Below, in pieces: positions 4,095 through 34,840 of a stretch of DNA of 34,840 nucleotides (position 1 is its first letter; every line of letters begins with the position of its first letter). This DNA is from an uncultured Eubacteriales bacterium (GTDB taxonomy: Bacteria > Bacillota > Clostridia > Christensenellales > CAG-917). The stretch lies in contig URTQ01000001.1 in NCBI GenBank assembly GCA_900550855.1, positions 1 through 34,840 on the forward strand. The letters are read 5' to 3'. Below the pieces are notes generated by a model. It was given only the letters and a program-made list of their open reading frames with translations, did no database searches and was not told where the DNA came from. Position numbers and translations under genes: made by a program.

Positions 4095-5663
4095 TCAGTA
4101 TTGCGTGTATCTCGCAACGTGGTTTTGGTCGTAATAATAGGTCGTATTCTCGCCTTTTGCGTGGGTGTCGTACCAGATTTGAGCATAAAACGGCATAAAT
4201 TTGGACAGCCTGTCATAATCCCACGGACTCGGTTGACAACATTCGGGACACCAGTGCCCCGCTTTGAGAATTGTGTACGGCGACGCCCAAAAACGATGTC
4301 CGTCGTGACATTCCCATTCGAGTTTCGTGTACAAATCGCCCTTCGTCATACTCGTAGAAACGCACTTACCGCCTCTAAAAGCCGCCGCCGATTGCATATC
4401 TTCGATGTCGAGTTCCTCGTCGGGTTTGCTTTCGTCATAGCCGTGGTCGAGGATATAGCCGTGTTCTTTCAACTTGGTTATGTCGCGCATATCGTCGTAA
4501 TCGACGTCGCCGTCCGCAAGTTGTCCGTGCGCAAGGACGGGGAATTTATCCCAGTCGCTCGGCAAACACTTCAAGTTTTCCTTGCTTCCGAAAAACGCCT
4601 TGACCTTGCCTGCCTGATTCGTTTTGACCCAGTATCTCGGCGCATTGTCGTCTTTGAGCAGTCTTTCGATTGCGAATTTCGACACGAGTTTTGCAGGCAC
4701 GAGTTTGCCGAGTCTGTAATATCCATGCGTTGAAAGTATCTCTTGCCAGTAAGTTTTCACGTCCTCGTGCTGAAAATCGAAATAATCGTTGAGGATATGG
4801 CTGTCCTCGAACCACATACAATGAAAATTGCGGATTGAATTCCACTCGGGTTTCATATACTTTTTCGTCGAACCGCCGATAATCTTGAATCCCTCGTCGA
4901 ACGTGTCGTAACCCGTAACTCTGTTGCACGCGCCGCCGCCGATGTTGTAGCACTTCTTCCAGAACTTGTCTTCGAGTTCGCCCTTTGAGTCCTTTTCCAC
5001 GAGTCTGCGCATCAAAAGTCCGCTGTCGCGCGCCGTAACCCACTCTATCGGCGCGTTGAAGCAGGTGTGAAACATCAATCCGTCTTTCATATTGTTGGTG
5101 AGCATTCTGTTGTGAAGCATACCCGTCTGACGAAGCACCGCCCATTGCTTTACGTCGCTGTCGAGAACGTATCTCTCGCCCTTGATTTTGCTTGCAGAAT
5201 ACTCGTCGTAGGTGCTGGATATGAGCGGGTCGCCCACCCTGCCCCACGGGTGCTTATAGTTGCGGTTGCCGTATATCGCAACGGTGGAAATATGCACGAG
5301 TTTCGGCTGATTTTCCTTTATCTCGGACACCGAATCCACGATATTCATTGCGCCTATGCGGTTACATCTGTCCGTAAGCACGGGATAATGGTCGGCAGTC
5401 GGCGGAATGACCGCGGCGAGATTGAGAACGTAATCGCTGTTTGCCACGAGTTTTCTGCAATCGTCGATTTCCGCAATATCGCCGAAAATAACCTCGATTT
5501 TGTTTCCGTATTTGCGCTTCCATTCCTTTGCGCACTTGCGCTCTCGCCTCTCGTTCAAAAGCAAAACTTTGATTTTTTCCACGACGTCGCTTTCCATAAG
5601 TTGAGCGACCGTTTCAAGTCCCATATTTCCGCTTGCGCCGATGATTGCAACGATTTTTTTCAT
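4095..5663 (-). CDS. Extended-SDR / NAD-dependent epimerase-dehydratase family protein with a long C-terminal extension ending in a zinc ribbon
   Basis: Rossmann motif IIGASGNMG and catalytic YSASK (YxxxK). The C-terminus has LEWECHDGHRFWASPYTILKAGHWCPEC. The start was trimmed to the ATG at 5663 (MKKIVAIIG), after AGGAAGGTGG. Confidence 0.75.
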   Translation of the reverse strand: MKKIVAIIGASGNMGLETVAQLMESDVVEKIKVLLLNERRERKCAKEWKRKYGNKIEVIFGDIAEIDDCRKLVANSDYVLNLAAVIPPTADHYPVLTDRCNRIGAMNIVDSVSEIKENQPKLVHISTVAIYGNRNYKHPWGRVGDPLISSTYDEYSASKIKGERYVLDSDVKQWAVLRQTGMLHNRMLTNNMKDGLMFHTCFNAPIEWVTARDSGLLMRRLVEKDSKGELEDKFWKKCYNIGGGACNRVTGYDTFDEGFKIIGGSTKKYMKPEWNSIRNFHCMWFEDSHILNDYFDFQHEDVKTYWQEILSTHGYYRLGKLVPAKLVSKFAIERLLKDDNAPRYWVKTNQAGKVKAFFGSKENLKCLPSDWDKFPVLAHGQLADGDVDYDDMRDITKLKEHGYILDHGYDESKPDEELDIEDMQSAAAFRGGKCVSTSMTKGDLYTKLEWECHDGHRFWASPYTILKAGHWCPECCQPSPWDYDRLSKFMPFYAQIWYDTHAKGENTTYYYDQNHVARYTQY

Positions 5664-5772
5664 ATATGCCACCTTCCTTTTGTTTACGCATATATTATCG
5701 CACCCCGCCCCTGCCGAAGTCTTGACAAAAACCTTACACTTTCGCCGTTATCCGCCCGACTTTTCCGCATTT

Positions 5773-5794
5773 TGTAAGAATTGTGTAAGAAATG
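5773..5794. repeat. Tandem 11-bp direct repeat, a candidate response-regulator binding site
   Basis: TGTAAGAATTG (5773-5783) is followed directly by TGTAAGAAATG (5784-5794), 10/11 identical. It lies about 110 nt upstream of the SDR gene start on the minus strand. Confidence 0.3.
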
Positions 5795-5823
5795 AAAAAT
5801 TCGGCGCAAGCACCGAATTTTTC
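5795..5823 (-). terminator. Rho-independent terminator after the TM2-domain gene; its symmetry makes it potentially bidirectional
   Basis: Stem AATTCGG (5798-5804) pairs with CCGAATT (5813-5819), flanked by an A-run and a T-run. On the minus strand the hairpin is followed by TTTTTCATTTCTT. Confidence 0.6.
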
Positions 5824-5845
5824 GTGAGGATTTTTTATATTGACT

Positions 5846-6196
5846 TTACGCAATATACTCTTTGGGTTTCGTTGCAATGGCGATAATGTCAACGAGCCAA
5901 CCTATACACCACAACCCTAACGTAAACATATACAAAACGCCCATTCCCGTTTTGCCCTCGTAGAACTTGTGCAAGCCGAACCAGCCGCCGAAAATCGCCA
6001 TCGGCAACGCTACGCTTTTCTTGCACTTCTTTCCTTTTTCCACAACGGCAACGCCTTGATTGCTTTGTTGCACCACGTTGTTTATAACGATACTCGGTTG
6101 CGGTTTCGCCTCAACGCTTTGATTTGCACCGCAAGAAGCACATTTGAACGCTTCATCCGGCATTTCCGCGCCACAATACGAACACTTTTTACTCAT
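5846..6196 (-). CDS. Zinc-ribbon plus TM2-domain membrane protein
   Basis: N-terminus CSYCGAEMPDEAFKCASCGA, then a TM2-like GGWFGLHKFYEGKTGMGVLYMFTLGLWCIGWLVDII. The start was trimmed to the ATG at 6196, after GGAGGG (6202-6207). Confidence 0.75.
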   Translation of the reverse strand: MSKKCSYCGAEMPDEAFKCASCGANQSVEAKPQPSIVINNVVQQSNQGVAVVEKGKKCKKSVALPMAIFGGWFGLHKFYEGKTGMGVLYMFTLGLWCIGWLVDIIAIATKPKEYIA

Positions 6197-6271
6197 TTGT
6201 TCCCTCCATTGTTTACAACATATGTGTTTTATTAACAACATTATACATAATATATGTTGTATTGTCAAGTT

Positions 6272-6475
6272 ATGAAATCATTTGGTGAAAATCTAAAATA
6301 CGAAAGAAAAATTGCAGGCTTAACCCAACAGCAACTTGCAGACAAAATGGGCATAAAGCAACAGCAATTAAGTCGGTGGGAACGTGACGAAATCGAGCCT
6401 GCCGTCAGCAGTATCGTCGCCATAGCAAAGGCGTTGGACGTGAGTTACGACGACCTTTTCGACGGCATCGAATAA
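6272..6475 (+). CDS. XRE-family helix-turn-helix transcriptional regulator
   Basis: MKSFGENLKYERKIAGLTQQQLADKMGIKQQQLSRWERDE is a textbook Cro/C1 HTH. An alternative in-frame ATG sits at 6254. Neither start has a clear SD. Confidence 0.8.
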   Translation: MKSFGENLKYERKIAGLTQQQLADKMGIKQQQLSRWERDEIEPAVSSIVAIAKALDVSYDDLFDGIE

Positions 6476-22311: not shown

Positions 22312-22409
22312 TATTAGCCTCCTATATTACACTTGTCCGTGTGTGTCTTATATTTTTTACCCGCCGCAACCGCGACGGAAAATGCGTATCTCTTTCGACA
22401 CGCTCGTTT

Positions 22410-22438
22410 ACTATATAATTTTTGAAAATTAAAGTCAA
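22410..22438 (-). promoter_or_regulatory. Strong sigma-70-type promoter of the S10 operon, with an A/T-rich upstream (UP-like) region
   Basis: On the minus strand, TTGACT (22438..22433), a 17-nt spacer, then TATAGT (22415..22410). The sequence upstream is an A/T-run (CATTTTTTTGC). This predicts a ~90-nt leader to the rpsJ ATG. Confidence 0.6.
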
Positions 22439-22710
22439 GCAAAAAAATGAGAATTTACGAATATTTTTCAAACTTGTGTCCGAAAACTCGAAATAACCGC
22501 AAAATCTTGTATATATGGATTACTTTTGTTTTCAAATAAAAGTGAATTATAAATATAATTGCGCGTGCCACGCACTCGGGTGTATCGAGGCAAAAACCGT
22601 CGTCAAGGCAACGACAACGCGCATAAAATGCGCATTGCCGAGAGCCTTGCTCGGTTTATTGCCTTCCCTACCGCGCAGAGAATTTGCGCTATTAAATCAA
22701 AAATTGAGAT

Positions 22711-22786
22711 GAAGAACAAGAAAACGCCCCTTTGATAGCAATCCTAACGTACATAGGCGTACGTGAATTGATAGCAAAGGGGCGTT
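22711..22786 (-). terminator. Rho-independent terminator after the ACS-domain-like gene (12-bp GC-rich stem, large loop with an inner hairpin)
   Basis: AACGCCCCTTTG (22723-22734) pairs with CAAAGGGGCGTT (22775-22786), with an inner ACGTAC...GTACGT stem. On the minus strand it is followed by TTTCTTGTTCTT. It begins 15 nt after the stop at 22802. Confidence 0.6.
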
Positions 22787-22801: not shown

Positions 22802-23557
22802 TCAATAGCGAGGTTTTGAAAGGTTGAGGTGCAACTCTCGCATGCCCTCTACCTCATCGCATATCTCTTTCAAATTGCAATGCGCACAGTCCACGAGTAC
22901 GTTGTCGAGAATGTGGTTGAATGCGGAAAGTATTTGCGAGGTATGAAGTGCAAAATTTTGTACGGGGTCAAAATCCGATGCGGTGTCGGCGACGAAAATC
23001 ACGGTGACGGCATTTACGACGTCGCGGCTCAAATAGGATTTTATTGTGGTTGCGCCGAGTGCCTCAAACGACAAACCTTTTTTGAGTGCGGTTTTTGAAA
23101 CGCGCACTTGCTCGCGCTGTCTGAAAGAAGAAGCGCGCATCATAAAGCCTTGCACGTTCTCTTTGTACTTTGCGTATTCCAAAGATTTGGTGAGGTCGAA
23201 AATCGCTTGTTCGTCCTCGGTCGCGTCCTTTACGGATATTAAAACTATCTTTGCGTAGTTACAATCGCGCTTGATGTCTTTGAGTTCTTTGCCGACCAAA
23301 ACGACTTTGTTTTCGACGGGCAAGTTGCCCGTAATGACGGTTGCGGCGGCGCAAGGCATATCGCTTCCGCCGAGTTCGTACGCGCTGTCCTTCGTCAAAA
23401 TCAGTTCGCTATGTTCGCTGACAGGCAAAGCCTTGCTCTCGTCGTAAGCGTAAATTTTGGTCGCGTTTTTCGCAACGTACGCCGTCAATTCGTTTATGTC
23501 GCTGTCAAAAATACTTATCATTTTCTTGCTGTGTTGTCTTATGCGATTTTGTGCCAT
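22802..23557 (-). CDS. Protein of unknown function resembling the middle domain of acetyl-CoA synthase (AcsB/CdhC), ending in CxxCx5C
   Basis: 251-aa ORF. By-eye alignment to AcsB residues ~305-515 (from memory): AYELGG, VRVSKTALKKGLSF, VTVIFVAD and a C-terminal DCAHCNLKEIC. No strong SD. It starts 16 nt after the CooC-like stop, so translational coupling is likely. The coding call is confident; the family assignment is tentative. Confidence 0.5.
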   Translation of the reverse strand: MAQNRIRQHSKKMISIFDSDINELTAYVAKNATKIYAYDESKALPVSEHSELILTKDSAYELGGSDMPCAAATVITGNLPVENKVVLVGKELKDIKRDCNYAKIVLISVKDATEDEQAIFDLTKSLEYAKYKENVQGFMMRASSFRQREQVRVSKTALKKGLSFEALGATTIKSYLSRDVVNAVTVIFVADTASDFDPVQNFALHTSQILSAFNHILDNVLVDCAHCNLKEICDEVEGMRELHLNLSKPRY

Positions 23558-23575
23558 TTTGCACGAAACGGCACT

Positions 23576-24340
23576 TTATTTGATTATTTCGAGTCCTTTA
23601 AGTGCTTCTTTCACACCAAGTACGACTTTCGAGTCGGCAGGAAGTTCAAACACGTTTTCGCCTTTGAGGTCAAACGAGGCAAGGTTTTTGTCGTCGCCTA
23701 TCGTGGCAAGAAGTTTCACGCCGTCGTAGTCGAGAGCGCGCACGGCAGCCTCGTCGGAAACGCGGTTTACGACGATTCCTATCTTGTCGTACATCACGAG
23801 TTCGTCGGCAACTTTCTTTATGGTCTTGCAAACGTCCCTACCCTTTTTCGACTGGTCGGTGACGAGAATAAGGTGAGTAACCTTTTCCATTACGCGACGA
23901 TTGATTTGCTCTATGCCCGCTTCGCCGTCGATAACGACGTAGTCGAAATCTTCTGACAAAATGCCGATTACGTCTTTGAGATACGCATTGATTTTGCAAT
24001 AGCAACCTGCGCTTTCGGGACGTCCTACCGCGATGAAAACGTAGCCGTCTTTTTCCACCATTGCGTCGAAAATGCGGAAGCGCGCCTCGTTGAGAAGTTC
24101 GATTGCGCCCTTTGCGTTGCCGTCCTCGACGTTTTCGATTATGCTCTTTCTTATGTCGTCTATTGTGGATTCCACTTCAACGCCGAGCGCAGTGGAAAGA
24201 CCTACCGCAGGGTCTGCGTCTATTGCCAAAATACGCTTGTCGGGATAGTTTTCAACCAACGTACGCACGATGGTTGCGGCAAGCGAAGTCTTGCCGACGC
24301 CGCCCTTTCCCGCGACTGCTATTATCGTTGCTTTTGCCAT
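23576..24340 (-). CDS. CooC/AcsF-family nickel-insertion ATPase (MinD/ParA fold)
   Basis: Deviant Walker A AGKGGVGKTS and the CooC-type Cys-x-Cys motif ESAGCYCKIN. The start was trimmed to the ATG at 24340 (MAKATIIAVAG), after GGAGGT. Confidence 0.85.
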   Translation of the reverse strand: MAKATIIAVAGKGGVGKTSLAATIVRTLVENYPDKRILAIDADPAVGLSTALGVEVESTIDDIRKSIIENVEDGNAKGAIELLNEARFRIFDAMVEKDGYVFIAVGRPESAGCYCKINAYLKDVIGILSEDFDYVVIDGEAGIEQINRRVMEKVTHLILVTDQSKKGRDVCKTIKKVADELVMYDKIGIVVNRVSDEAAVRALDYDGVKLLATIGDDKNLASFDLKGENVFELPADSKVVLGVKEALKGLEIIK

Positions 24341-24399: not shown

Positions 24400-24588
24400 C
24401 ATTTATAAGGAATATCCTCTTGTTAACATTCTACACTCGTTTATACACCTCATTCGCGACATTATAGCCCACCACATCTTTTTTAGTCACGCAAGAAATC
24501 CATCGTTACGCTTTATCATTTGTCCCGATACTTCAATTAGCAATAAAACATTTTTATGCAAAACTAAGTTCTTTTTAAGAATAAAATA

Positions 24589-24664: not shown

Positions 24665-25777
24665 ATGAAAAAGAAAAGTATAATTCTTTTGCTTTGTCTT
24701 GTAGTAATAACGATTATCGGCGTTTTTGCGCTTTCGGCGTGCGGGGACTCGGAAGAACCCGAACCGACTGCTACAAAACACAACGTTACCGTGCAATCAA
24801 CCGCCGAGTGCTCTGTTTCCGTCGATAAAACGCAAGCGGAATTTGCAGAAACAGTAACTATTACGGTAGATTTGAAAGTTACGGACAAATACATCGAAAA
24901 GGTTACCTACAACGGACAAGAAGCAACCAAGCGTTCAAAAAACACATATGATTTCCTTATGGGAAACGACGACGTTGTAGTTGCCGTCGAATTGAAAGAG
25001 TATCAACAACTTCTTATCGATCCAAACGGCTTTGCCACATATCTCACCCTAAATCCTACGACTATTGCTAAAAACAACGGAACGATTTCACTCACGGTGT
25101 CGTTGCACTCAAATTATATGACGATTCTGAACTGGGATATTCAATCCACAAATCAAGCGGCGATTCCCGGATCGAGCGTAAAGAATTCTTATTCCGAACT
25201 CGACGAAAGCGGCGCAATATCGGCGGAAGTGCAAACATCGAGTTCAAGCAATGTCATTACCTCTCTTAAAATTTATATCGATACGGATAAAACCGAAAGC
25301 GGCAAGACTTTCCTTCTCATAAATCTTCAAAACGGAAACTCGTCATCTCAAAGCGCAAGTCTTGTTGTTCCGATCACTGTTGCGGAAGACATTGTCACAA
25401 CAAAGTGGAACGAAACCTTGATTTTTGACGTGTCTGCTCTTCCAAACAACGTAAAACAAGGCAAATTCAACATATATGTCAACGACTATGATTATGTTTC
25501 TGGAAGCGACAACAAGCAAGATCAAAATTTTGAAAATATGGAAGCCGATGACAACGACAAAATAAAAATTAATATAGAATATGTACCGACAAGACGATAC
25601 TATATCTCAATCTGGTTTGTAGAACAGGACGGTTCTCTCACTTGTTATGCCCTTGCAGATACGATCGGGTCGGGTTCAAGTGCCATCGGTTTCAACCAAT
25701 TCAAAAACTCTATGCTCACCCTTCTTTCGAATGGTCAAAGTTTTGAATTGACCGTACTAAACAAAATCGAGCACTGA
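24665..25777 (+). CDS. Secreted lipoprotein of unknown function
   Basis: Signal peptide MKKKSIILLLCLVVITIIGVFALSAC with lipobox LSAC followed by G. The mature part is Ser/Thr/Asn-rich and beta-rich in character, with no motif I recognise. Confidence 0.85.
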   Translation: MKKKSIILLLCLVVITIIGVFALSACGDSEEPEPTATKHNVTVQSTAECSVSVDKTQAEFAETVTITVDLKVTDKYIEKVTYNGQEATKRSKNTYDFLMGNDDVVVAVELKEYQQLLIDPNGFATYLTLNPTTIAKNNGTISLTVSLHSNYMTILNWDIQSTNQAAIPGSSVKNSYSELDESGAISAEVQTSSSSNVITSLKIYIDTDKTESGKTFLLINLQNGNSSSQSASLVVPITVAEDIVTTKWNETLIFDVSALPNNVKQGKFNIYVNDYDYVSGSDNKQDQNFENMEADDNDKIKINIEYVPTRRYYISIWFVEQDGSLTCYALADTIGSGSSAIGFNQFKNSMLTLLSNGQSFELTVLNKIEH

Positions 25778-25838: not shown

Positions 25839-25867
25839 TTTACATTTTAGCCCGTCGGCTTTATAAT
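25839..25867 (+). promoter_or_regulatory. Candidate promoter of tldD-tldE
   Basis: TTTACA (25839-25844), a 17-nt spacer, then TATAAT (25862-25867). SD GAAGGAG lies 5 nt before the ATG at 25896. Confidence 0.5.
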
Positions 25868-25895
25868 GAAACTATCAATTAATGAAGGAGCGATT

Positions 25896-27230
25896 ATGTA
25901 TAAATTCAATCCAAAATTTTATGCGGACGTGCGTATAGAGGACAGATTCACGACGGCTATCGTTTACAAAAACGGGGCGCTGGACTCGTGCAGAGTACGC
26001 AACGAAAAACGTGCTTTTATCCGCGTATATGACGGACAAATCTGGCTTTACGCCTCGACATCTGACACGAACAAGATTCAATCGGAACTTGACAATTTGT
26101 ACGCGCAGGCGACACCTTGCGACGATATTGCAAATCACCCCATCGTAAAACGTTATCAAGTCAACGTGGCAACCGAATACAAATTCGAGAATCGCAACGT
26201 AAGAAACGTTTCCGTCGAGGACAAAAAGGAACTTTGCAAGCGCATACTGCCCCACGTTAAGAGTCAATTTCTCGCAATGTCGCAAATCGGCTATCAAGAC
26301 CGCAACAGTCGTTACGAGTTCTATTCCTCGAAAGGCGCGGACATCAAATACGATTATCAAATGTGCGGCATTTTAGCGGTAGGCGTGCTTGCCGCACCCG
26401 GCGACTTCGTACAAGCGGTGTATCAACTCGCAAAACCATATTTTGACGAGATTAAAGGCTTCGAAGCCGACATCGAAAAGAAAATGGCTGACGCGGACAA
26501 CTTCGTCCAAAATGCAAAACCCTGCAAAAAGGGCAAATATCCCGTCATTCTCTCGCCTATGGCGGCAGGTATGTTCGCTCACGAGTCCTTCGGACACAAG
26601 AGCGAAGCGGACTTTATGCTCGGCGACGAACAAATGGCAAAAGAATGGGTGCTTGGCAAAAAAGTCGGTAGCGAAATTCTTTCTATCGTAGATACGGGCG
26701 CGGACTTCGGTTCGGGTTACGTTCCCTTCGACGACGAAGGCACGAGATGCACCAAAACTTACCTCATCAAAGACGGTATTTTGTGCGGTAGACTTCACAG
26801 CGCGACCACGGCGGCTGCTCTCGACGAGGAACTCACGGGCAATGCAAGAGCAATCGACTGCAAGTTCGAGCCTATCGTGAGAATGACCAACACCTATATC
26901 GAACCGGGCAACAGCACTTTCGACGAGTTGGTCGCAGGCATAGACGAGGGATACTTCATCGACACGGTTTCGCACGGTTCGGGCGGCTCGACGTTTACGA
27001 TTGCGCCCTCTATCGCATACGAAATCAAAAACGGCAAACTCGGCGGACCTGTCAAGATTTCCGTCGTCACGGGCGACGTGTTCGAAACCCTTATGAAAAT
27101 CGACGGTTTGTCCGACGAAACCGTATTCGAAGACGGCGTTTTCGGCGGTTGCGGCAAAATGGAACAATTCCCGCTTCACGTTCTGGACGGCGGTCCGTTC
27201 GTACGCGTGAAAGAAATGAACGTACAATAA
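25896..27230 (+). CDS. tldD: TldD-family zinc metalloprotease, the catalytic subunit
   Basis: HESFGHKSE (HExxxH) plus the C-terminal GGCGK cysteine ligand context. The start was trimmed to MYKFNPKF, after GAAGGAG. Confidence 0.9.
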   Translation: MYKFNPKFYADVRIEDRFTTAIVYKNGALDSCRVRNEKRAFIRVYDGQIWLYASTSDTNKIQSELDNLYAQATPCDDIANHPIVKRYQVNVATEYKFENRNVRNVSVEDKKELCKRILPHVKSQFLAMSQIGYQDRNSRYEFYSSKGADIKYDYQMCGILAVGVLAAPGDFVQAVYQLAKPYFDEIKGFEADIEKKMADADNFVQNAKPCKKGKYPVILSPMAAGMFAHESFGHKSEADFMLGDEQMAKEWVLGKKVGSEILSIVDTGADFGSGYVPFDDEGTRCTKTYLIKDGILCGRLHSATTAAALDEELTGNARAIDCKFEPIVRMTNTYIEPGNSTFDELVAGIDEGYFIDTVSHGSGGSTFTIAPSIAYEIKNGKLGGPVKISVVTGDVFETLMKIDGLSDETVFEDGVFGGCGKMEQFPLHVLDGGPFVRVKEMNVQ

Positions 27231-27240
27231 GGAGAACGCT

Positions 27241-28458
27241 ATGGAAAAAGAATATATCGTAAACAAAACATCCTCTCTTTCTATAAACGTGGTTGCCACA
27301 GAAGTCGAATCTCTGCGCAAAGTCGATGAAACGACGTCCACCGTTCGCGTATACGAAGACGGTTATATCGGCGTTGCGGGACAAATCGGCGACGAAAATA
27401 TCGGCGATCTCGAAGCGCAAGCCGTTGAAAACTTGTCATCAAAAATCGAATATCCCTGCCAACTCACTCAAAACGAAACGAAAAGCGTCGATTCGAGAAA
27501 ACATATTGTTGACACCGAGCATTTCGTGAAAGTCGCAAGAGATTTGCTTGCCACGCTCAAAGCCGAAGTGCCCGACTTCCTTTTCAGCAACAAAATTCAG
27601 TATCACGAGAGCGAAACGACCTATCGCAACAGCCAAAACACTTCTCTTTACTATGCAGGCAACGAGATGGATTTGGTTATTTGCATAAAGAGCAAGAAGA
27701 GCGCAAACATTATGGACTTTGCATATGCGGTTGCCGTCGACGAATACGACAAGCAAAAGGCGGTTGCGGACATCAAAGCACTTTGCGCCGCGTATCTCAA
27801 CGACGTCCCCCTCGAAGACGGCAAATACACCGTCGTTGCGGAACAATCCTTGTTCTTCGGCAACTGCGTCGAACATCTTGCGGGCGAGAGTTACGCAACA
27901 AGCGCGTCGCTTTTCAAGGATAAACTCGGACAACGCATTTTGAGCGACAAACTCACCATCGAACTCGACAGAACGAACAATCTCAATCTTGCGTTCTTCG
28001 ATGCAGAAGGTTCGTTTGCAAAGACGGACGAAAACGTACTGGTTGACAAAGGCACGTTCGCGCGCGTGCTTGCGAACAAGAAAATCGCAAGCACATACAA
28101 CCTTCCCCGCGTATTCTGTTCGAGAGCGGCGTACGATTCCGTTCCGGTAACGGGCGGTTCGGGGCTCGTTATGCGCAAGACCGCCGATAGAATCGAAGAT
28201 TTGCTCGGCGACGAAAAAGCGATCTACATTCTCGACGCGTCGGGCGGCGATATGACCACAAGCGGCGATTTCGCAACGCCTTGCCAAGTCGCGTTGCTCG
28301 TTGAAAACGGCAAATTCGTGGGCAGAGTTCCTCAAATCAACCTGTTCGGCAACGTCAAAGAATATCTCGGCGACGATTACGTCGGAGCAAGCGACAGAGG
28401 TTTGTTCCAAAACAAAACCGACCTTGCCGTCGCAAAAATGAACGTCACGAAGATTTGA
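27241..28458 (+). CDS. tldE: TldE/PmbA-family partner subunit, with no HExxxH motif
   Basis: It lies 10 nt after tldD with SD AAGGAGA. It has TldD/PmbA-like length and C-terminal Gly-rich segments (VTGGSGLVM, ASGGDMTTSGDFA) but lacks the metal motif. Confidence 0.8.
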   Translation: MEKEYIVNKTSSLSINVVATEVESLRKVDETTSTVRVYEDGYIGVAGQIGDENIGDLEAQAVENLSSKIEYPCQLTQNETKSVDSRKHIVDTEHFVKVARDLLATLKAEVPDFLFSNKIQYHESETTYRNSQNTSLYYAGNEMDLVICIKSKKSANIMDFAYAVAVDEYDKQKAVADIKALCAAYLNDVPLEDGKYTVVAEQSLFFGNCVEHLAGESYATSASLFKDKLGQRILSDKLTIELDRTNNLNLAFFDAEGSFAKTDENVLVDKGTFARVLANKKIASTYNLPRVFCSRAAYDSVPVTGGSGLVMRKTADRIEDLLGDEKAIYILDASGGDMTTSGDFATPCQVALLVENGKFVGRVPQINLFGNVKEYLGDDYVGASDRGLFQNKTDLAVAKMNVTKI

Positions 28459-28565: not shown

Positions 28566-28985
28566 TTATTTCACGTTCAGATATGCGATGAGCAACGCAA
28601 CTGCCACGGCGATCAACACGCCGCCGAAAATCAAAGCAATATTAAATTTCTTTTTCTTCTTTTCGGGCGAGTGTTTCCTCTCGATATACTCTTGATAAGT
28701 TTCTTTTTTGTGCCAGTCCAAGCCTTTGCCTGCGGGCATATGCGTATTAAAAAACGTGGATATGCCGTAGCCTATCGCGTCGAACGCACCCTTATCTGAT
28801 GCCCACGACAAGCCGCTTACGCAAAGCAAGACCACACCGGGCACGAAAAACGCGTCGCAAAGCACTTTCAAAACTTTGGATTGTTCGCATTGCTCGGTAA
28901 GCAAGCCGTTGACGCCGCATATCGTGAGAATGATTGCAAGCGCAATCACAAACAGAACGGCAATTTTTATAAGCGTCGTTTTCAT
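28566..28985 (-). CDS. Small three-TM membrane protein (DUF3899-like), translationally coupled to oppF
   Basis: Hydrophobic segments IAVLFVIALAIILTICGV, FFVPGVVLLCVSGL and IALIFGGVLIAVAVALLIAYL. A GAFDAIGYGISTF motif is present. ATGA overlap with the oppF stop. Confidence 0.6.
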   Translation of the reverse strand: MKTTLIKIAVLFVIALAIILTICGVNGLLTEQCEQSKVLKVLCDAFFVPGVVLLCVSGLSWASDKGAFDAIGYGISTFFNTHMPAGKGLDWHKKETYQEYIERKHSPEKKKKKFNIALIFGGVLIAVAVALLIAYLNVK

Positions 28986-30472
28986 TGCTCGTCTTGATTC
29001 GTATCCGATTCGGCTTCGTTTGCGGTTTCGAGAATAACCTCGTTGCCTGCAACCGTAATGCCTTCTTGTTTGAGAAGGGACAAATCGACGGGTGCGATAA
29101 CGGGCATATCGTCAACCGATTCGGCGGTTTGTTCCGCAACGGTTTCTTCGGTTTGTGCGACTTCCGCTTGATTTTGTTCGCCTACGCCCGTCGTATCGTC
29201 TACGATTTCGCCCTTGCAAATCTTGACGTATCTTTCAAATTCCTCTTGGTTGCAAGACACGAAATGTCCGGGTTCGACCTCTCTCATTTGAGGCTTATCC
29301 ACCGAATAATCGTGATCGGCAAGCGGATTGTAAACTATACGTTTGCGTTGTTTCTCATAGATAGGATCGGGAAGCGGAATTGCCGAAAGCAACGACTTCG
29401 TGTACGGGTGCAACGGGTGCGCGAACAGTCTGTCCGAAGTTGCGAGTTCCACCATATTGCCGAAGTACATAACGCCGATTCTGTCCGAGAAGTATTTGAC
29501 GACGGAAAGGTCGTGCGCAATGAACATAATCGTCAAGCCGAGTTCGTGTCTTAAATCGTTGAGCAGGTTGATAACTTGCGCCTGTATGGACACGTCGAGT
29601 GCCGAAATAGGCTCGTCGGCGATTATCATTTCGGGTTGCATAATGATTGCTCTTGCAACGCCGATACGTTGTCTTTGACCGCCCGAAAATTCGTGGGGAT
29701 ATCTGCCTGCGTGTTCTCTGACAAGACCGACTTTTTCAAGCACGTCGTACACTTTTTCGTCCACGACTTTCTTGTCTCTTATGCCACGAATGGTAAGACC
29801 TTCCGCAATGATTTCGCGCACGGTCATACGAGGGTCGAGCGACGCAATCGGGTCTTGGAACACCATTTGAATCTTGGTTACGAGCCTCGTTTTGCGAGCG
29901 AAATTGAGGTCTTTAAGATACTGCCACAAGAGTGCGAAATACGCTTTGTCTTTCTTCTCTATTGCCGCAAACTTGGGTTTATAGTCCTCTTTTACCTTGT
30001 TAATGTGCTCTTTTGCGTAATCTCTGTCGCATCTCTTTTGATCGTGATTCGCTTTGCGGATGTTTTTGTTCTGCTCTTTCACCGCAGCCTTCAACTCGGC
30101 AAAAGACGCTTTCAAATCAACCGCGTTTTCTTCGTTTTCTTCGCCTTTCTTTTTGGACGAAGCGCGCTTCAAATCGCCGAGGGATTTTTTGAACGCGGCT
30201 TTTCTCGCTTCCTTGTAGGAAAGCGTGCCGGCGCATATTCTTCTGCCCTCGAAGTACACGTTGCCCGAAGTGCAGTTGTAAAGTTTGATGATACTGCGAC
30301 CCGTCGTGGTTTTACCGCAACCGGATTCGCCGACCAAACCGAAGACCTCGCCTTTTTTGATGTCAAAGGAAACGTCGTTGACTGCTTTGAGCGTTGACGA
30401 GCCGAGTTTGAAGTACTGGCACAGATGTTCGACGCGCAATAGCGTTTCTTGTTCGTTTACGTTCGTGTCCAT
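28982..30472 (-). CDS. oppF: Oligopeptide/dipeptide ABC transporter ATP-binding protein, OppF-type, with an internal insertion and an acidic C-terminal tail
   Basis: Walker A GESGCGKTT, Q-loop IQMVFQDP, signature FSGGQRQRIGVARA, Walker B MIIADEP. The Opp C-terminal domain has HPYTKSLLSAIP. Confidence 0.9.
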   Translation of the reverse strand: MDTNVNEQETLLRVEHLCQYFKLGSSTLKAVNDVSFDIKKGEVFGLVGESGCGKTTTGRSIIKLYNCTSGNVYFEGRRICAGTLSYKEARKAAFKKSLGDLKRASSKKKGEENEENAVDLKASFAELKAAVKEQNKNIRKANHDQKRCDRDYAKEHINKVKEDYKPKFAAIEKKDKAYFALLWQYLKDLNFARKTRLVTKIQMVFQDPIASLDPRMTVREIIAEGLTIRGIRDKKVVDEKVYDVLEKVGLVREHAGRYPHEFSGGQRQRIGVARAIIMQPEMIIADEPISALDVSIQAQVINLLNDLRHELGLTIMFIAHDLSVVKYFSDRIGVMYFGNMVELATSDRLFAHPLHPYTKSLLSAIPLPDPIYEKQRKRIVYNPLADHDYSVDKPQMREVEPGHFVSCNQEEFERYVKICKGEIVDDTTGVGEQNQAEVAQTEETVAEQTAESVDDMPVIAPVDLSLLKQEGITVAGNEVILETANEAESDTNQDEQ

Positions 30473-30484
30473 ATTCGTCTCCTT

Positions 30485-32662
30485 TTACTGCTGTTCCGCT
30501 TTGGATTTTTGCGCGAGGGCTTTCATTCTCTCGATACGGTCGGAAACGATTTTGGGCATTTCGACCTTTGGTGCGGACGGGTGCAACAACCACGTTGCCG
30601 CGCTGTGAGTATCGCTGATTTTGAACATCGGGGGTTGTTCCTCGAAGTCTATCTTCATAGCATACTTGTTTCTTGCGGCAAACGCGTCGCCCTTAGGCGG
30701 ATAGATCATATTCGGGGGCGTACCGGGGATAGCTTCGAGTTTCTCGTTCGTGTCGAGGTCGGGCATAGAGGACAAGAGCGCCCAAGTGTACGGATGCGCG
30801 GGGGAATAGAAAATATCTTCCGCCGTACCCGTTTCCACGATTTTGCCCGCGTACATAACCGCGATTCTGTCAGCCATATTCGCAACGACGCCGAGGTCGT
30901 GTGTAATGAATATGATGGAAAGATTTCTTTCTTTCTTGATTTTGTTGATAAGTTCGAGGATTTGAGCCTGAATCGTAACGTCGAGTGCGGTCGTAGGTTC
31001 GTCGCAAATGAGAATATCGGGGTTTGCGGCGAGCGCGATTGCGATGACGATACGTTGTCTCATACCGCCCGAGAACTGGAAGGGATATTGACGATATCTC
31101 TTTCTCGGTTCGGGAATACCGACCTCTTCCATAAGTTTCAACGCCTTATTCTTTGCGACGATATGCGTAACGCGATACGCGACCGCTTGCGCCTTTTCTT
31201 TGAAGAAGTCGATCATAGCGACCGTAGCGGCGTCGAAATCGATGTTTTGCGCGTTTTCGACGGCGTGTTCGTAGACCGAAACGAGTTTGTCGATAATCTC
31301 GACTATATTGTGTCTTGCGATATCCAAATCGATGATTTTCGCGGGGATAACCTTATAGTCGGGCGTTTTTCCTTTTGCGACGAGTTTGTCGAACTTCGCC
31401 TGATCTCTGTCGAAACGTTTTTGTTCTTTCGCGTTGTTGGGAATCGCCTCGAAATAGGTGTTTATCGCGCGCATAATGCTCGATTTGAACGTATACGCCG
31501 CGCTGTCCTTGACGAGAGCGAGTTTGTCGATAGACTCGGCAACGCTTGCGCACATCTCTTTTGCGGCTTCTTTATACGCTTTTTTGTCGGGTTCGCCGTC
31601 GGTAAACACGCTTCTCTTTTGTTTGAGAAGTTCGATGGCTTCCTTTTTCTTTTCGAGCGAACGATTGAACGAGAACTCTATACCCTTTTTTGCCGTGTCG
31701 ATAAAGTCGAGCATAAAGTTGTCATCGAGATATTTGCGCAAGAACTTGTTTTCTTCCTCGACGTTGTCGGGAAGTTCCTCGTTGTGTCCGAACGTCTGAT
31801 AGTATGCAAGCGCAAAGTAATTGGGCATAGTCTTTGCGCACGCTTCCTCGAAGCACGCTTTGAGTTTTTTGAGCGGCTCGACGCAAACGGAATAATCTCT
31901 CTTTTTCGCGCTGACTTTGAGCAAGGGTTTTACCGCTTCGATAAGTTCCTGACGAGCGGTCAAAACGTCTTGCGAGCATACGTTTTCGTGTACGGAAAGT
32001 CTTGCGCTTTTAAGAATGTCGTATATCGATCTCGTGAAACCTTCGACGGCGTTCTTTTCGATGTGGAAAAGCAAATCGTCAACGTTTTCGAGTCCCGTTT
32101 CGGCATTTTCGTACGCTTTGTTGTACGCACCCTCTATTTTGAGGTGGTAGGTTTCGAACGTATCGAAATCTTTTGCTTTTTTGGCGTTGATTTTGCCTTG
32201 TTCGCTGTTTGCGGCAACGCCCGCTGCGCTGTTGACCGCTTCGAGCAAGAGAGCCATTTTTGTGTTGAACTCTTTTCTCGATTCTCTGCGATTCGCTCTG
32301 TTTTTGAGGATCATAGCCTCGGTAAGTTGCATACCGATGCGGTTGATCGGGTCGAGCGCGGAAAGCGGGTCTTGGAATATCATCGCGATTTTGTCGCCGC
32401 GAAGTTTGTGGAAATCGTCCTCGCTGATTTGAAGCAAGTCCATACCGTCATAGAGTATCTCGCCGCTTTCAACGATTGCGTTTGGTGCGGAAATGCCTAT
32501 GATCGCTTTGTTCGTAACGGATTTACCCGAACCGGACTCACCCACTATCGCAAGCGTTTCGCCTTTGTAGAGGTCGAAATCGATGCCTCTGACCGCTTGT
32601 ACGTTGCCTGCGTCCGTGCGGAAGGAAATACGCAAATCTTTAACTTCTAACTTCTTTTCCAT
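30485..32662 (-). CDS. oppD: Oligopeptide/dipeptide ABC transporter ATP-binding protein, OppD-type, with a ~375-aa insertion in the helical subdomain
   Basis: Walker A GESGSGKS, Q-loop MIFQDP, signature FSGGMRQRIVIAIA, Walker B ILICDEP, and HPYTWALLSSMP. The start was trimmed to the ATG at 32662 (MEKKLEVKDL), after GGAGGG. Confidence 0.9.
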   Translation of the reverse strand: MEKKLEVKDLRISFRTDAGNVQAVRGIDFDLYKGETLAIVGESGSGKSVTNKAIIGISAPNAIVESGEILYDGMDLLQISEDDFHKLRGDKIAMIFQDPLSALDPINRIGMQLTEAMILKNRANRRESRKEFNTKMALLLEAVNSAAGVAANSEQGKINAKKAKDFDTFETYHLKIEGAYNKAYENAETGLENVDDLLFHIEKNAVEGFTRSIYDILKSARLSVHENVCSQDVLTARQELIEAVKPLLKVSAKKRDYSVCVEPLKKLKACFEEACAKTMPNYFALAYYQTFGHNEELPDNVEEENKFLRKYLDDNFMLDFIDTAKKGIEFSFNRSLEKKKEAIELLKQKRSVFTDGEPDKKAYKEAAKEMCASVAESIDKLALVKDSAAYTFKSSIMRAINTYFEAIPNNAKEQKRFDRDQAKFDKLVAKGKTPDYKVIPAKIIDLDIARHNIVEIIDKLVSVYEHAVENAQNIDFDAATVAMIDFFKEKAQAVAYRVTHIVAKNKALKLMEEVGIPEPRKRYRQYPFQFSGGMRQRIVIAIALAANPDILICDEPTTALDVTIQAQILELINKIKKERNLSIIFITHDLGVVANMADRIAVMYAGKIVETGTAEDIFYSPAHPYTWALLSSMPDLDTNEKLEAIPGTPPNMIYPPKGDAFAARNKYAMKIDFEEQPPMFKISDTHSAATWLLHPSAPKVEMPKIVSDRIERMKALAQKSKAEQQ

Positions 32663-32663
32663 A

Positions 32664-34226
32664 TCAGCCCTCCGAACCTCTGAGCGACGGGTTGAACGCG
32701 TCGCGCAAACCATTGCCGAACAAGTTGAAACTGAGCAGCAACAGAGCAAGGAACAACGACGGCATCAACGCGACGTGAGCAGCCGTCATAAGTGCGCTTT
32801 GACCGCTTGCAAGCAACGTGCCGACGCTTGTAAGGTTGCCCGACGTCAAACTGATGATTCCGAGATAACTCAGGTTGACTTCCGAATAAATCATAGACGG
32901 AATGACGAGAGCGCAACTCGTGACCAACGTACCGAGCGCGTTGGGGAAAATGTGTTTGACGATAATTCTTGCGTCGCGTGCGCCGAGAGTGCGCGCGGCA
33001 AGGACGTATTCTTGATTTTTGTAGCGATAGAACTGCATTCTGGTCGTTGAAGCCATACCGATCCACCCCGTAAGGAAGAAGGACAGGAACAGTATCAGCG
33101 GCGCGCCCGACGCGCCCATATGCAGTTTGAGCAGCGTAACGACGATCATAGTCGGAACAGCGGAAAGTATATCCGAAACCCTTTCCATAACCAAGTCGAT
33201 TTTGCCGCCGTAGTAACCCTCTATTGCGCCGTAGATTGCGCCGACGATCAAGTTGACGAGAGCAACCGAGATTGCAAACGCGAACGAGAACAACGCACCC
33301 GAAGCGAGGCAAGTGAAAATGTCTTGACCTTCTTCGTTTGCACCGAACAGGAACGAGGGCTTTTTTATACCGTCTTTAAGCACATACGAGTGCTGGAAGA
33401 TGTAATATTCGTAGTAGTTTACACGGACTTCGTAGCCTGCGTCGATAGCGCGAGCGTATTCGTATTCGATGCCGTTTTCACGGTCGCCTGCGATACGCAA
33501 GGAATCGTAATCGTCGTAGCAAGTTTGTCCGATATTGTGTTTTTTGTAATCGGGAATAACGTTACCGTTTGCGTCCAACTCTGCCTGCATAGAACTCGTG
33601 TTGAACTTGTAGTAGTAGTTTGCTGCGGTATCGACGGAAACGTTGCCTTTCGTCACGATTTGGTAGGTTTCGACCATTCTCTTTTGCGAAAGTCTGAGCG
33701 CGGGATAAATGACCTGTATGCCCGTTTCGTTCTGATACTGTTGAAGAAGTTTATATTCTTCTTCGGACATTTTCAAATAAACGCAACCCGTCTTTTGATA
33801 GGAATCGAGACGGAACGTATACATTTTGCCGTCTTTGGTGTATTCCTGATTTTTGACCGCATTATGCCCCGTTTCTTCACCCATATAGTAGTAGTAATAG
33901 AACGTGGCTTTGGACAGAGTTTTTTCCTCGCAGCCGTCCCAGAAGTCCGTTTTTGCAAACAGTTCGCTGCGCGGCAATGCGTAACGGAAATAAGTATCTC
34001 TGTGCGACACGGGATATTGAGAGAAAATCGTACCGAAAATTGCGTACAAAATCAACAACAATATAACGCACGCGCCCACGATAGAGCCTTTGTTTTTGCA
34101 AAAACGCGAGAACGCGTCCGCAAAGTAACTGCGCGGCTTCGTGGCGAGAGATTTTTCGTGCGACAAGTCTTGCTTGTCCACGAATTCGAATTTTTCTTTG
34201 GGGATGTTTTGACAGACTTGTTCCAT
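32664..34226 (-). CDS. oppC: Opp/Dpp ABC transporter permease, OppC-type, with an enlarged first extracytoplasmic loop
   Basis: Permease core with EAA-like LAARTLGARDARIIVKHIFPN. Residues ~70-295 lie between TM1 and the conserved FGANEEGQDIF segment. Confidence 0.85.
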   Translation of the reverse strand: MEQVCQNIPKEKFEFVDKQDLSHEKSLATKPRSYFADAFSRFCKNKGSIVGACVILLLILYAIFGTIFSQYPVSHRDTYFRYALPRSELFAKTDFWDGCEEKTLSKATFYYYYYMGEETGHNAVKNQEYTKDGKMYTFRLDSYQKTGCVYLKMSEEEYKLLQQYQNETGIQVIYPALRLSQKRMVETYQIVTKGNVSVDTAANYYYKFNTSSMQAELDANGNVIPDYKKHNIGQTCYDDYDSLRIAGDRENGIEYEYARAIDAGYEVRVNYYEYYIFQHSYVLKDGIKKPSFLFGANEEGQDIFTCLASGALFSFAFAISVALVNLIVGAIYGAIEGYYGGKIDLVMERVSDILSAVPTMIVVTLLKLHMGASGAPLILFLSFFLTGWIGMASTTRMQFYRYKNQEYVLAARTLGARDARIIVKHIFPNALGTLVTSCALVIPSMIYSEVNLSYLGIISLTSGNLTSVGTLLASGQSALMTAAHVALMPSLFLALLLLSFNLFGNGLRDAFNPSLRGSEG

Positions 34227-34227
34227 A

Positions 34228-34840
34228 TTACTTAGCCCCCATTCTGATTCTCGGGTCGATAATGCCGTAACTTATATCGACGATAATACCCGCAAGCAAG
34301 CCTACGAGTGTGTAGAAGCCCGACAACAACATAAAGAAGTCGTAGTCAAGCGAGTTGATTGAGTTCAAATACAAACCGCCGACGCCCGGTATCGAGAAGA
34401 ATTTTTCAATGATAAGCGAGCCGCTGAGAACGGAAATAAATTCGCCCAAAATCATCGGGAAAATCGGGACCATAGCGTTTCTCAAAGCGTGGCGAACAAT
34501 CGCCTGCCCTTTGGTCAAACCTTTCGTTCTTGCAAGAAGCATAAACTCGTTGGTCAACACTTCGGTGAGTTCCGCACGCGTGTAACGCGCATAACCCGCG
34601 ATAGAACCGAGGCACAGAGCCAAAACCGCCGGCAACATACTGTAAAACATTTCCCAAGTGAAATAGTCAGTTCCGTTTGCCATCATAAGCGGGAACCATT
34701 TCCACTTAAAGCACAAAACGTACTGAATCAAGAATGCAAACACGATCGAAGGGATCGAAATAAGCAACATAACGCCGGTGGAAATGACTTGATCTTGCCA
34801 TTTGTTCTTTTTGAGTGCCGCGAGAATGCCGCGGCCGGGA
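34228..34840 (-). CDS. oppB: Opp/Dpp ABC transporter permease, OppB-type; the 5' end is off-window
   Basis: EAA motif LLARTKGLTKGQAIVRHALRNAMVP and C-terminal DPRIR. The reading frame stays open upstream of the listed Met to the window edge (…GRGILAALKKNKWQDQVISTGV). Confidence 0.85.
   Translation of the reverse strand, partial: PGRGILAALKKNKWQDQVISTGVMLLISIPSIVFAFLIQYVLCFKWKWFPLMMANGTDYFTWEMFYSMLPAVLALCLGSIAGYARYTRAELTEVLTNEFMLLARTKGLTKGQAIVRHALRNAMVPIFPMILGEFISVLSGSLIIEKFFSIPGVGGLYLNSINSLDYDFFMLLSGFYTLVGLLAGIIVDISYGIIDPRIRMGAK

Follow-up and report, generated by a model that had tools for sequence, protein, structure and literature searches.

What is the role of two genes that recall the machinery of carbon monoxide dehydrogenase (CODH) and acetyl-CoA synthase (ACS) and that stand directly ahead of a ribosomal protein operon? 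They lie on contig URTQ01000001.1 (assembly GCA_900550855.1) from an uncultured Eubacteriales bacterium of the Christensenellales (CAG-917), of which positions 1 to 34,840 were analysed (the window). One gene encodes a CooC-type ATPase and the other a free-standing homolog of the middle (A2) domain of ACS, called below the A2-like protein. An earlier interpretation made from the DNA letters (the sequence-only reading) regarded them as an orphan pair detached from CODH/ACS and noted that the 34.8-kb window contains no cooS, acsB or corrinoid gene. We found none there either; however, in 76 loci the same two genes bracket an HgdAB-type enzyme and its HgdC-type activator. We propose, with a probability of about 60%, that the two genes form the accessory half, for metal handling, of a six-gene system, the catalytic half of which is encoded at another locus in this lineage. 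The two genes are as follows.

23576..24340, minus strand: putative CooC-family P-loop ATPase, 254 aa, with the deviant Walker A motif AGKGGVGKT, invariant C113-Y-C115 and a ribosome-binding site

22802..23521, minus strand: putative stand-alone homolog of the ACS middle domain (A2, N-terminal part of CdhC), 239 aa, assigned from Pfam CdhC, the ACS fold and the starts of its homologs

The ATPase belongs to the CooC family

CooC1 and AcsF are MinD-type ATPases which insert nickel into the C-cluster of CODH and the A-cluster of ACS. The ATPase of the window, whose gene has a GGAGG ribosome-binding site 8 nt before the ATG, matches only the generic CbiA/MinD/ParA families in Pfam and NCBIfam, and none of the curated NCBIfam models claims it. 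In a phmmer search, its best solved relative is CooC1 from C. hydrogenoformans (3KJE; E = 3.4e-17, the runner-up being at 5e-7). The alignment spans residues 7-232 of 254, close to the full length, and superimposes the Cys-x-Cys sites of the two proteins ('sagCYCkin' in the ATPase, 'gsqCYCren' in CooC1). Among 60 members of the ATPase family, the Walker A sequence GKGGVGKT, C113-x-C115 and H156 are invariant. Judged from these alignments, the protein is an ATPase of the MinD/ParA fold with the deviant Walker A motif of the CooC family, and it has the metal-binding Cys-x-Cys motif of that family, a dimer-interface site, at the CooC1 position, as the sequence-only reading had recognized. It is like CooC1 and AcsF over its full length and of the same size. 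However, CooC1 and AcsF serve CODH/ACS, whereas this ATPase never adjoins cooS or acsB and has an HgdAB-type enzyme and the A2-like protein as its partners.

The second protein is a free-standing middle domain of acetyl-CoA synthase

The longest open reading frame (ORF) of the A2-like gene reaches position 23557 and would give the 251-aa protein and 16-nt intergenic gap of the sequence-only reading. Yet all 34 aligned homologs begin at the second ATG (23521, 'MISIFD', 239 aa), and in other assemblies nine of ten gene calls give 239 aa. Translation almost certainly starts at this second ATG, which widens the intergenic gap from 16 to 54 nt.

The A2-like protein passes the Pfam family CdhC (PF03598) with 35.2 bits for a gathering score of 24, its residues 51-192 covering profile positions 12-152 of 155. 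NCBIfam places it on residues 308-448 of the 705-aa model of bacterial ACS, with 26 bits as against a cut-off of 800. The profile of the family aligns to residues 331-497 of Moorella ACS, i.e. the middle domain (E = 1.3e-7), and this alignment includes the motifs ELGG/EMGG and RVSK. We also predicted the structure with AlphaFold2 from the family alignment (predicted local distance difference test, pLDDT, 85.1; predicted template modelling score, pTM, 0.80) and compared the model with the PDB using Foldseek. The top 21 matches are all ACS, with E values from 1.5e-9 to 6e-6 and template modelling (TM) scores of 0.42-0.58 over about 175-200 columns, and the next match is at E = 0.29. By Pfam and by predicted fold, the protein is an ACS middle domain, and the homology that the sequence-only reading had seen by eye is confirmed. 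AcsB/CdhC shares with it the CdhC family, the fold match found only with ACS and the two motifs, but also has domain A1 (CODH docking, gas tunnel) and domain A3, neither of which is found in the A2-like protein. The family is a tight clade whose members, of about 235 aa, stand alone. A word-indexed search gave 253 clusters at 90% identity, and an exhaustive search gave 185 representatives at 50% identity (E ≤ 1e-30), with no fusion among the best 150. More than 563 species-level genomes encode such a protein, all from gut or rumen Clostridia.

The C-terminal part of the family carries the near-invariant motif NHILDNVxxDCxxCNLKxICDEVEGMxELH, which contains Cys212, Cys215, Cys221, His203, His231, Asp211 and Asp222. 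The protein terminates 18 residues past the third Cys and contains no CGC. As the sequence-only reading had pointed out, the rest of the A-cluster domain is missing: AcsB/CdhC has a fourth cubane Cys and the Cys-Gly-Cys nickel site, whereas the A2-like protein has neither and ends in a CxxCx5C and His/Asp tail of its own. The same reading had lined up DCAHCNLKEIC with the first CxxC of the A-cluster. The spacing to A2 is indeed about the same as in ACS, but the agreement is one of position only, since the ACS alignment stops about six residues ahead of the first motif Cys and a profile of the motif alone found no match in the PDB, ACS included. The motif was consequently rejected as a homolog of the ACS A-cluster region or of any solved protein. 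A metal or Fe-S site at this place is very likely.

In relatives the two genes are the ends of a six-gene cluster

Beside distant members of the A2-like family (42% and 51% identity), we first saw a cluster of six genes in the order ATPase, HgdA-like subunit (about 400 aa), HgdB-like subunit (about 510 aa), HgdC-type activator, tiny membrane ORF and A2-like protein. The ATPase and A2-like genes are its first and last genes in 76 loci and are about 3.7 kb apart in most relatives. The conserved adjacency that the sequence-only reading had asked about holds within the clade of the window, but not in most relatives, where the two genes occupy opposite ends of the cluster.

The middle genes encode two HGD-D proteins (PF06050) and a BcrAD_BadFG activator (PF01869). 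Two HGD-D subunits with an ASKHA [4Fe-4S] activator are clustered with the pair in the 76 canonical and in 4 rearranged loci; DCCP/DCCP-R (DCCP, double-cubane cluster protein), BzdNOPQ/MbdONQP, HadBC-HadI and HgdAB-HgdC have the same make-up. The HgdA-like subunit, with nine invariant Cys, has its best PDB and NCBIfam matches in BzdN (4.5e-34), HadC and DCCP, and the activator matches MbdQ, HadI and HgdC at 1e-53 to 1e-61. The HgdB-like subunit matches DCCP and MbdO weakly; it is divergent and about 100 aa longer than its counterparts in DCCP, benzoyl-CoA reductase (BCR) and dehydratase systems. The scores are far below all the curated equivalog cut-offs (141 vs 350 bits for double_cubane, NF040772; 118 vs 454 for BzdN; 96 vs 700 for HadC), and the proteins therefore form an unnamed subfamily of the dehydratase/benzoyl-CoA-reductase/double-cubane enzymes. 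As assigned from these matches, the partner is an ATP-driven, low-potential Fe-S enzyme of the 2-hydroxyacyl-CoA dehydratase/benzoyl-CoA reductase/double-cubane family. This catalytic subfamily is very well conserved, its HgdB-like subunit being 56-86% identical across orders, and it is abundant in sequence collections (one exact variant on at least 1,000 contigs; one cluster of more than 5,000 sequences).

The tiny ORF encodes 49-58 aa with one predicted transmembrane helix and is located between the activator and A2-like genes (L001:9843-10001, L004:9817-9993, in our numbering of loci). It suggests that the enzyme is membrane-associated.

The only characterised relatives of both proteins belong to CODH/ACS, and the sequence-only reading had left room for the pair being an accessory unit (AcsF/CooC plus an ACS fragment) of a complete CODH/ACS encoded elsewhere in the genome. 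The neighbourhoods make this very improbable: the conserved neighbours are HGD-D and BcrAD_BadFG proteins, and no CODH, ACS or corrinoid-protein family occurs in any annotated neighbourhood of the fetched loci. Moreover, both proteins are far under the NCBIfam cut-offs for ACS, and the A2-like family forms a clade apart.

A probable split of the cluster in the lineage of the window

Architectures were assigned by tblastn of the six proteins over all fetched loci; the counts are biased by the fetching and are not prevalences. They are the following.

Canonical six-gene cluster: 76 loci

ATPase-CdhC-HgdA-HgdB-Act-tiny (L017, L026, L171, L172): 4 loci

ATPase-Act-tiny-CdhC-HgdA-HgdB (L116-L118): 3 loci

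Pair only: 38 loci, 15 of them with at least 1.5 kb on both sides

HgdA-HgdB-Act-tiny only: 46 loci, 24 of them with at least 1.5 kb on both sides

Here CdhC stands for the A2-like gene and Act for the activator gene. A few loci have other forms: L122 has HgdA-HgdB-tiny-CdhC and no activator, and in L073 all that precedes the A2-like gene is a fragment of the activator gene and the tiny ORF. In L025 (CP091723.1, a long-read metagenome-assembled genome) the cluster genes look frameshifted, the A2-like ORF ending at 188 aa and HgdA being split; errors in the assembly are a likelier explanation than pseudogenes.

The architecture follows the relatedness to the window. Where the A2-like protein is at least 65% identical to that of the window, the ATPase and A2-like genes are always adjacent, and these loci are pair-only except L017 and L026; at 59% identity or less, all the loci with enough flank have the canonical cluster. 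In the tree of A2-like proteins the pair-only forms make up one monophyletic clade, which is nested among the forms that have the cluster. L017, L026 and L171 are basal in this clade; they carry the contiguous rearranged form, with upstream neighbours as in the window. In L017 the upstream context is exactly that of the window (Opp-type transporter, DUF3899, PmbA/TldD on the other strand, ATPase, CdhC-like gene), but the CdhC-like gene is followed by HgdA-HgdB-Act-tiny, whereas in the window, L009 and L015 it is followed by the S10 ribosomal operon. As read from gene order and tree, the loci show the canonical cluster first, then the A2-like gene beside the ATPase gene, and finally the departure of the four catalytic genes. 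The tight adjacency of the two genes is a derived state of one clade (Christensenellales-like, "CAG:238"). In the ATPase tree, four six-gene taxa are interleaved with pair-only forms, and more than one split event is possible. Where the cluster has come apart, the ATPase and A2-like genes always remain together, and the tiny membrane ORF remains beside the catalytic genes.

We found no HgdA, HgdB or activator gene in the 34.8-kb window, and a search of its spacers for remnants of the four catalytic genes gave only noise. Could the pair be a relic, as the sequence-only reading had also considered? Its A-cluster nickel site is missing and its catalytic partners are absent from the window. However, the median ratio of nonsynonymous to synonymous substitution rates (dN/dS) of the A2-like gene is 0.146 in the pair-only clade vs 0.164 in six-gene genomes, and that of the ATPase gene 0.056 vs 0.051; taken together, dN/dS is 0.06-0.15. 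The pair is under strong purifying selection, as strong as in six-gene genomes. All the motifs are invariant, and the ORFs are intact in dozens of species and assemblies. In addition, the pair has its own ribosome-binding site and the two following elements, both of which agree with the sequence-only reading.

22712..22786, minus strand: putative intrinsic terminator of the pair, a hairpin at 22723-22786 followed by a U-rich tract (dG -37.2 kcal/mol, z -6.4)

24461..24490, minus strand: promoter-like site with the sequence GTGACT-18-TATAAT, which precedes the start codon of the ATPase gene by about 120 nt and is a consensus match only

A decaying, functionless relic is barely credible in view of these observations.

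The catalytic half in the same lineage

The four-gene loci HgdA-HgdB-Act-tiny point to where the other half may be. At 90% identity, the HgdB proteins of four-gene loci L092-L110 cluster with those of L017 and L026 (cluster P0136); the four-gene loci therefore come from the lineage of the pair-only loci. Further indirect evidence is given by four-gene locus L096, whose upstream flank is 79-81% identical in nt to the sequence that precedes the pair in L015, L006 and L013. Assembly C74 contains both halves. Its contig NODE_9 (251,677 bp, coverage 52.57) has the pair (ATPase 98% and A2-like protein 88% identical in aa to those of the window) and then an S10 operon 98% identical in nt to that of the window, and NODE_12 (218,527 bp, coverage 53.33) has a stand-alone four-gene unit. 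The two contigs have GC contents of 0.476 and 0.482, and the correlation of their tetranucleotide frequencies (r = 0.95) is as high as that between the window and NODE_9. That purifying selection on the pair is as strong as in six-gene genomes is another indirect sign. The pair very probably belongs to a split six-gene system.

In another explanation, the catalytic genes were lost rather than moved in the lineage of the window, and the pair is autonomous, for example as a small Ni/Fe-S protein with its own insertase. The strong purifying selection would fit such a pair, and so would the stable layout of pair and S10 operon, with no Hgd genes within 10 kb in many assemblies; locus L096 can be read as one half replacing the other at the same site. 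But four-gene loci of the same clade are abundant, C74 has both halves at equal coverage and composition, and no pair-only lineage was found outside the clade that supplies the four-gene loci. We consider a loss improbable.

Several observations weigh against our proposal of a split system handling metal. The four-gene unit is tied to the organism of the window by clade and by a single coverage-matched co-assembly, C74, with no shared contig, and look-ups from P0241, P0242, P0312, the window rpsJ and the window ATPase found no contig with both halves. L096 holds the four-gene unit at the very place occupied by the pair in relatives. A second, unrelated lineage has only the four-gene unit (L125-L169, GC 0.37), with no pair identified. 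On the functional side, no nickel-specific marker was found, the nearby Opp/Nik-type transporter being a lineage-specific context. The C-terminal motif that would bind the metal is modelled at low confidence (pLDDT 51-63) and, as noted above, its profile matches nothing in the PDB, ACS included. From L096 and the second four-gene lineage, some genomes may keep only one half.

This second lineage (L125, L126, L153-L162, L167-L169), on metagenome contigs of up to 669 kb, has neither the ATPase nor the A2-like gene at the locus; the pair may have been lost there or relocated, the latter amounting to an independent second split. It is near six-gene genomes such as L001, with a tetranucleotide r of 0.95 and 88% identity between their HgdB proteins (P0166 vs P0165). 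In CAG:475-type contigs (L174-L183 and L105, up to 1.18 Mb) a stand-alone four-gene unit has a fixed context: thrS, a major facilitator superfamily transporter, a metallophosphatase, an oxaloacetate-decarboxylase operon of the Na+-pump type (alpha, gamma, biotin carrier, beta), an ORF of 260 aa that varies between strains and is encoded on the other strand, HgdA-HgdB-Act-tiny and phosphoenolpyruvate (PEP) carboxykinase. The oxaloacetate-decarboxylase and PEP carboxykinase surroundings may hint at the metabolic setting of the four-gene unit.

A tentative function: loading of a metal

What would such an accessory half do? By analogy with the characterised proteins of the CooC family, all of which are ATP-dependent nickel insertases for Ni-Fe-S clusters (CooC, AcsF; PMC6006190), we tentatively propose that the job of the pair is ATP-dependent metal loading, a proposal whose chances we put slightly below even. 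The ATPase dimer would bind a metal ion, nickel by the same analogy, at its invariant CxC, and ATP binding and hydrolysis would drive the transfer of the metal onto the Cys3/His/Asp site of the A2-like protein. The A2-like protein would then either retain the metal and serve the HgdAB-like enzyme as a small Ni/Fe-S cofactor protein, or pass the metal on to this enzyme in trans. We favour metal loading because the diagnostic residues of CooC are kept, because the Cys3/His/Asp residues are invariant and because the two genes stay together. We also propose that the unlinking of the pair is tolerated because it acts in trans; hyp and cooC genes likewise tolerate being unlinked from their clients. 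A metallocentre-handling module, as suggested by the sequence-only reading, is still the best functional guess, while its framing as a module detached from CODH/ACS is not retained.

The main rival, which we regard as unlikely, makes the A2-like protein a stoichiometric subunit of HgdAB, with an A2 surface binding CoA or acyl-CoA, three Cys carrying an electron-transfer Fe-S cluster and an ATPase that only matures this site. In ACS, acetyl-CoA indeed binds mainly to residues of A2 (bioRxiv 10.1101/2024.08.05.606187; PMC12289521), and the enzyme family of the partner works on CoA thioesters. The basic residues RVSK, R129, R136 and R140 are invariant in the A2-like family, and no CoA-transferase gene was found in the cluster neighbourhoods of its distant members. 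On the other hand, in a hand reading of the Moorella ACS alignment, one ACS Trp near RVSK faces Gln in the A2-like family; we assume that this Trp is the adenine-stacking Trp405. Stoichiometric subunits are seldom unlinked, yet it is the ATPase gene, not the catalytic genes, that the A2-like gene accompanies. Finally, over the same genomes the A2-like protein has diverged much faster (38-50% identity) than have HgdA and HgdB (56-86%).

A bolder version of metal loading appears distinctly unlikely: the ATPase and the three-Cys A2-like protein would build or carry a nickel Fe-S site, that is an A-cluster-like centre assembled in trans, or form a CODH-independent module for Ni-thioester (CoA) chemistry. 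If an A-cluster-like centre were assembled in trans, it would provide the first nickel-dependent member of the dehydratase/benzoyl-CoA-reductase/double-cubane family, in a widespread gut system.

Enzymes of this family catalyse reactions that are among the most strongly reducing in biology, and we know of no dedicated metal-insertion factor for them. We made full-text literature searches that covered Haft's SAO/double-cubane preprint, CooC maturation reviews, DCCP reviews, the BzdNO structure paper and a gut Fe-S enzyme review. In this literature, no CooC-type ATPase or ACS-domain partner is described for a dehydratase, BCR or double-cubane enzyme, and these systems are also without the tiny membrane ORF. 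The components are all from known families; what looks new is their combination, together with an A2 domain that stands alone and carries a Cys motif of its own. The link of this distinct, highly conserved enzyme subfamily to a CooC-type ATPase and to a free-standing ACS domain can be followed up by experiment, as a pointer to a new way of cofactor maturation or to a new heterometal in the family, and it yields a concrete biochemical hypothesis for a system widespread in the human gut. The ACS middle domain, for its part, has an evolutionary life outside CODH/ACS. The source annotations of these genes are 'hypothetical protein', 'carbon monoxide dehydrogenase' and 'cobyrinic acid a,c-diamide synthase'; the last two are misleading and can be corrected where the examined neighbourhoods show no CODH/ACS gene.

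Surroundings of the pair in the window

Farther upstream of the pair, at 28566..34770 (minus strand), lie an ATP-binding cassette transporter of the Opp/Dpp/Nik type with unusually long ATPase subunits (754/725 aa, 496 aa) and then a DUF3899 gene. The transporter and DUF3899 are also near the pair in L017, L009, L014, L008, L171 and L205-L211, and in L171 and L015 an Opp-type transporter is directly upstream of the pair on the same strand. NikABCDE is a member of the same transporter family. As nickel evidence, however, this neighbour was rejected as too lineage-specific, the six-gene clusters of other lineages having unrelated neighbours.

The plus strand carries two genes of the TldD/PmbA metallopeptidase type (25866..28458) in the interval that separates the transporter from the pair, an arrangement which recurs in L017, L009, L014 and L190. 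Nearer to the pair, at 24665..25777 (plus strand) and divergent from it, is a lipoprotein-like ORF of 370 aa (signal peptide with Cys, Ser/Thr-rich), which belongs to no Pfam family and is kept in ten of ten assemblies of the species of the window.

A different gene is directly ahead of the ATPase gene in many pair-only loci. It encodes a protein of 417-421 aa with an N-terminal membrane anchor and no Pfam family (L015:7707-8966, L006:7713-8966, L171:7608-8873, L025:3889-5150, L096 about 5087-6400; also L185-L192). It is also found ahead of the ATPase gene in one rearranged and one canonical locus, and ahead of HgdA in L096. The 370-aa ORF was compared with it as a possible equivalent and proved unrelated; the 417-421-aa gene itself is absent from the window. 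Its product may be a seventh component of the system.

An Rfam scan of the window returned no family, including at 22312..22700. This block of about 390 nt upstream of rpsJ is 94-98% identical in nt across species, lies within the part that aligns with the S10 operon and could be a leader or regulatory element of that operon.

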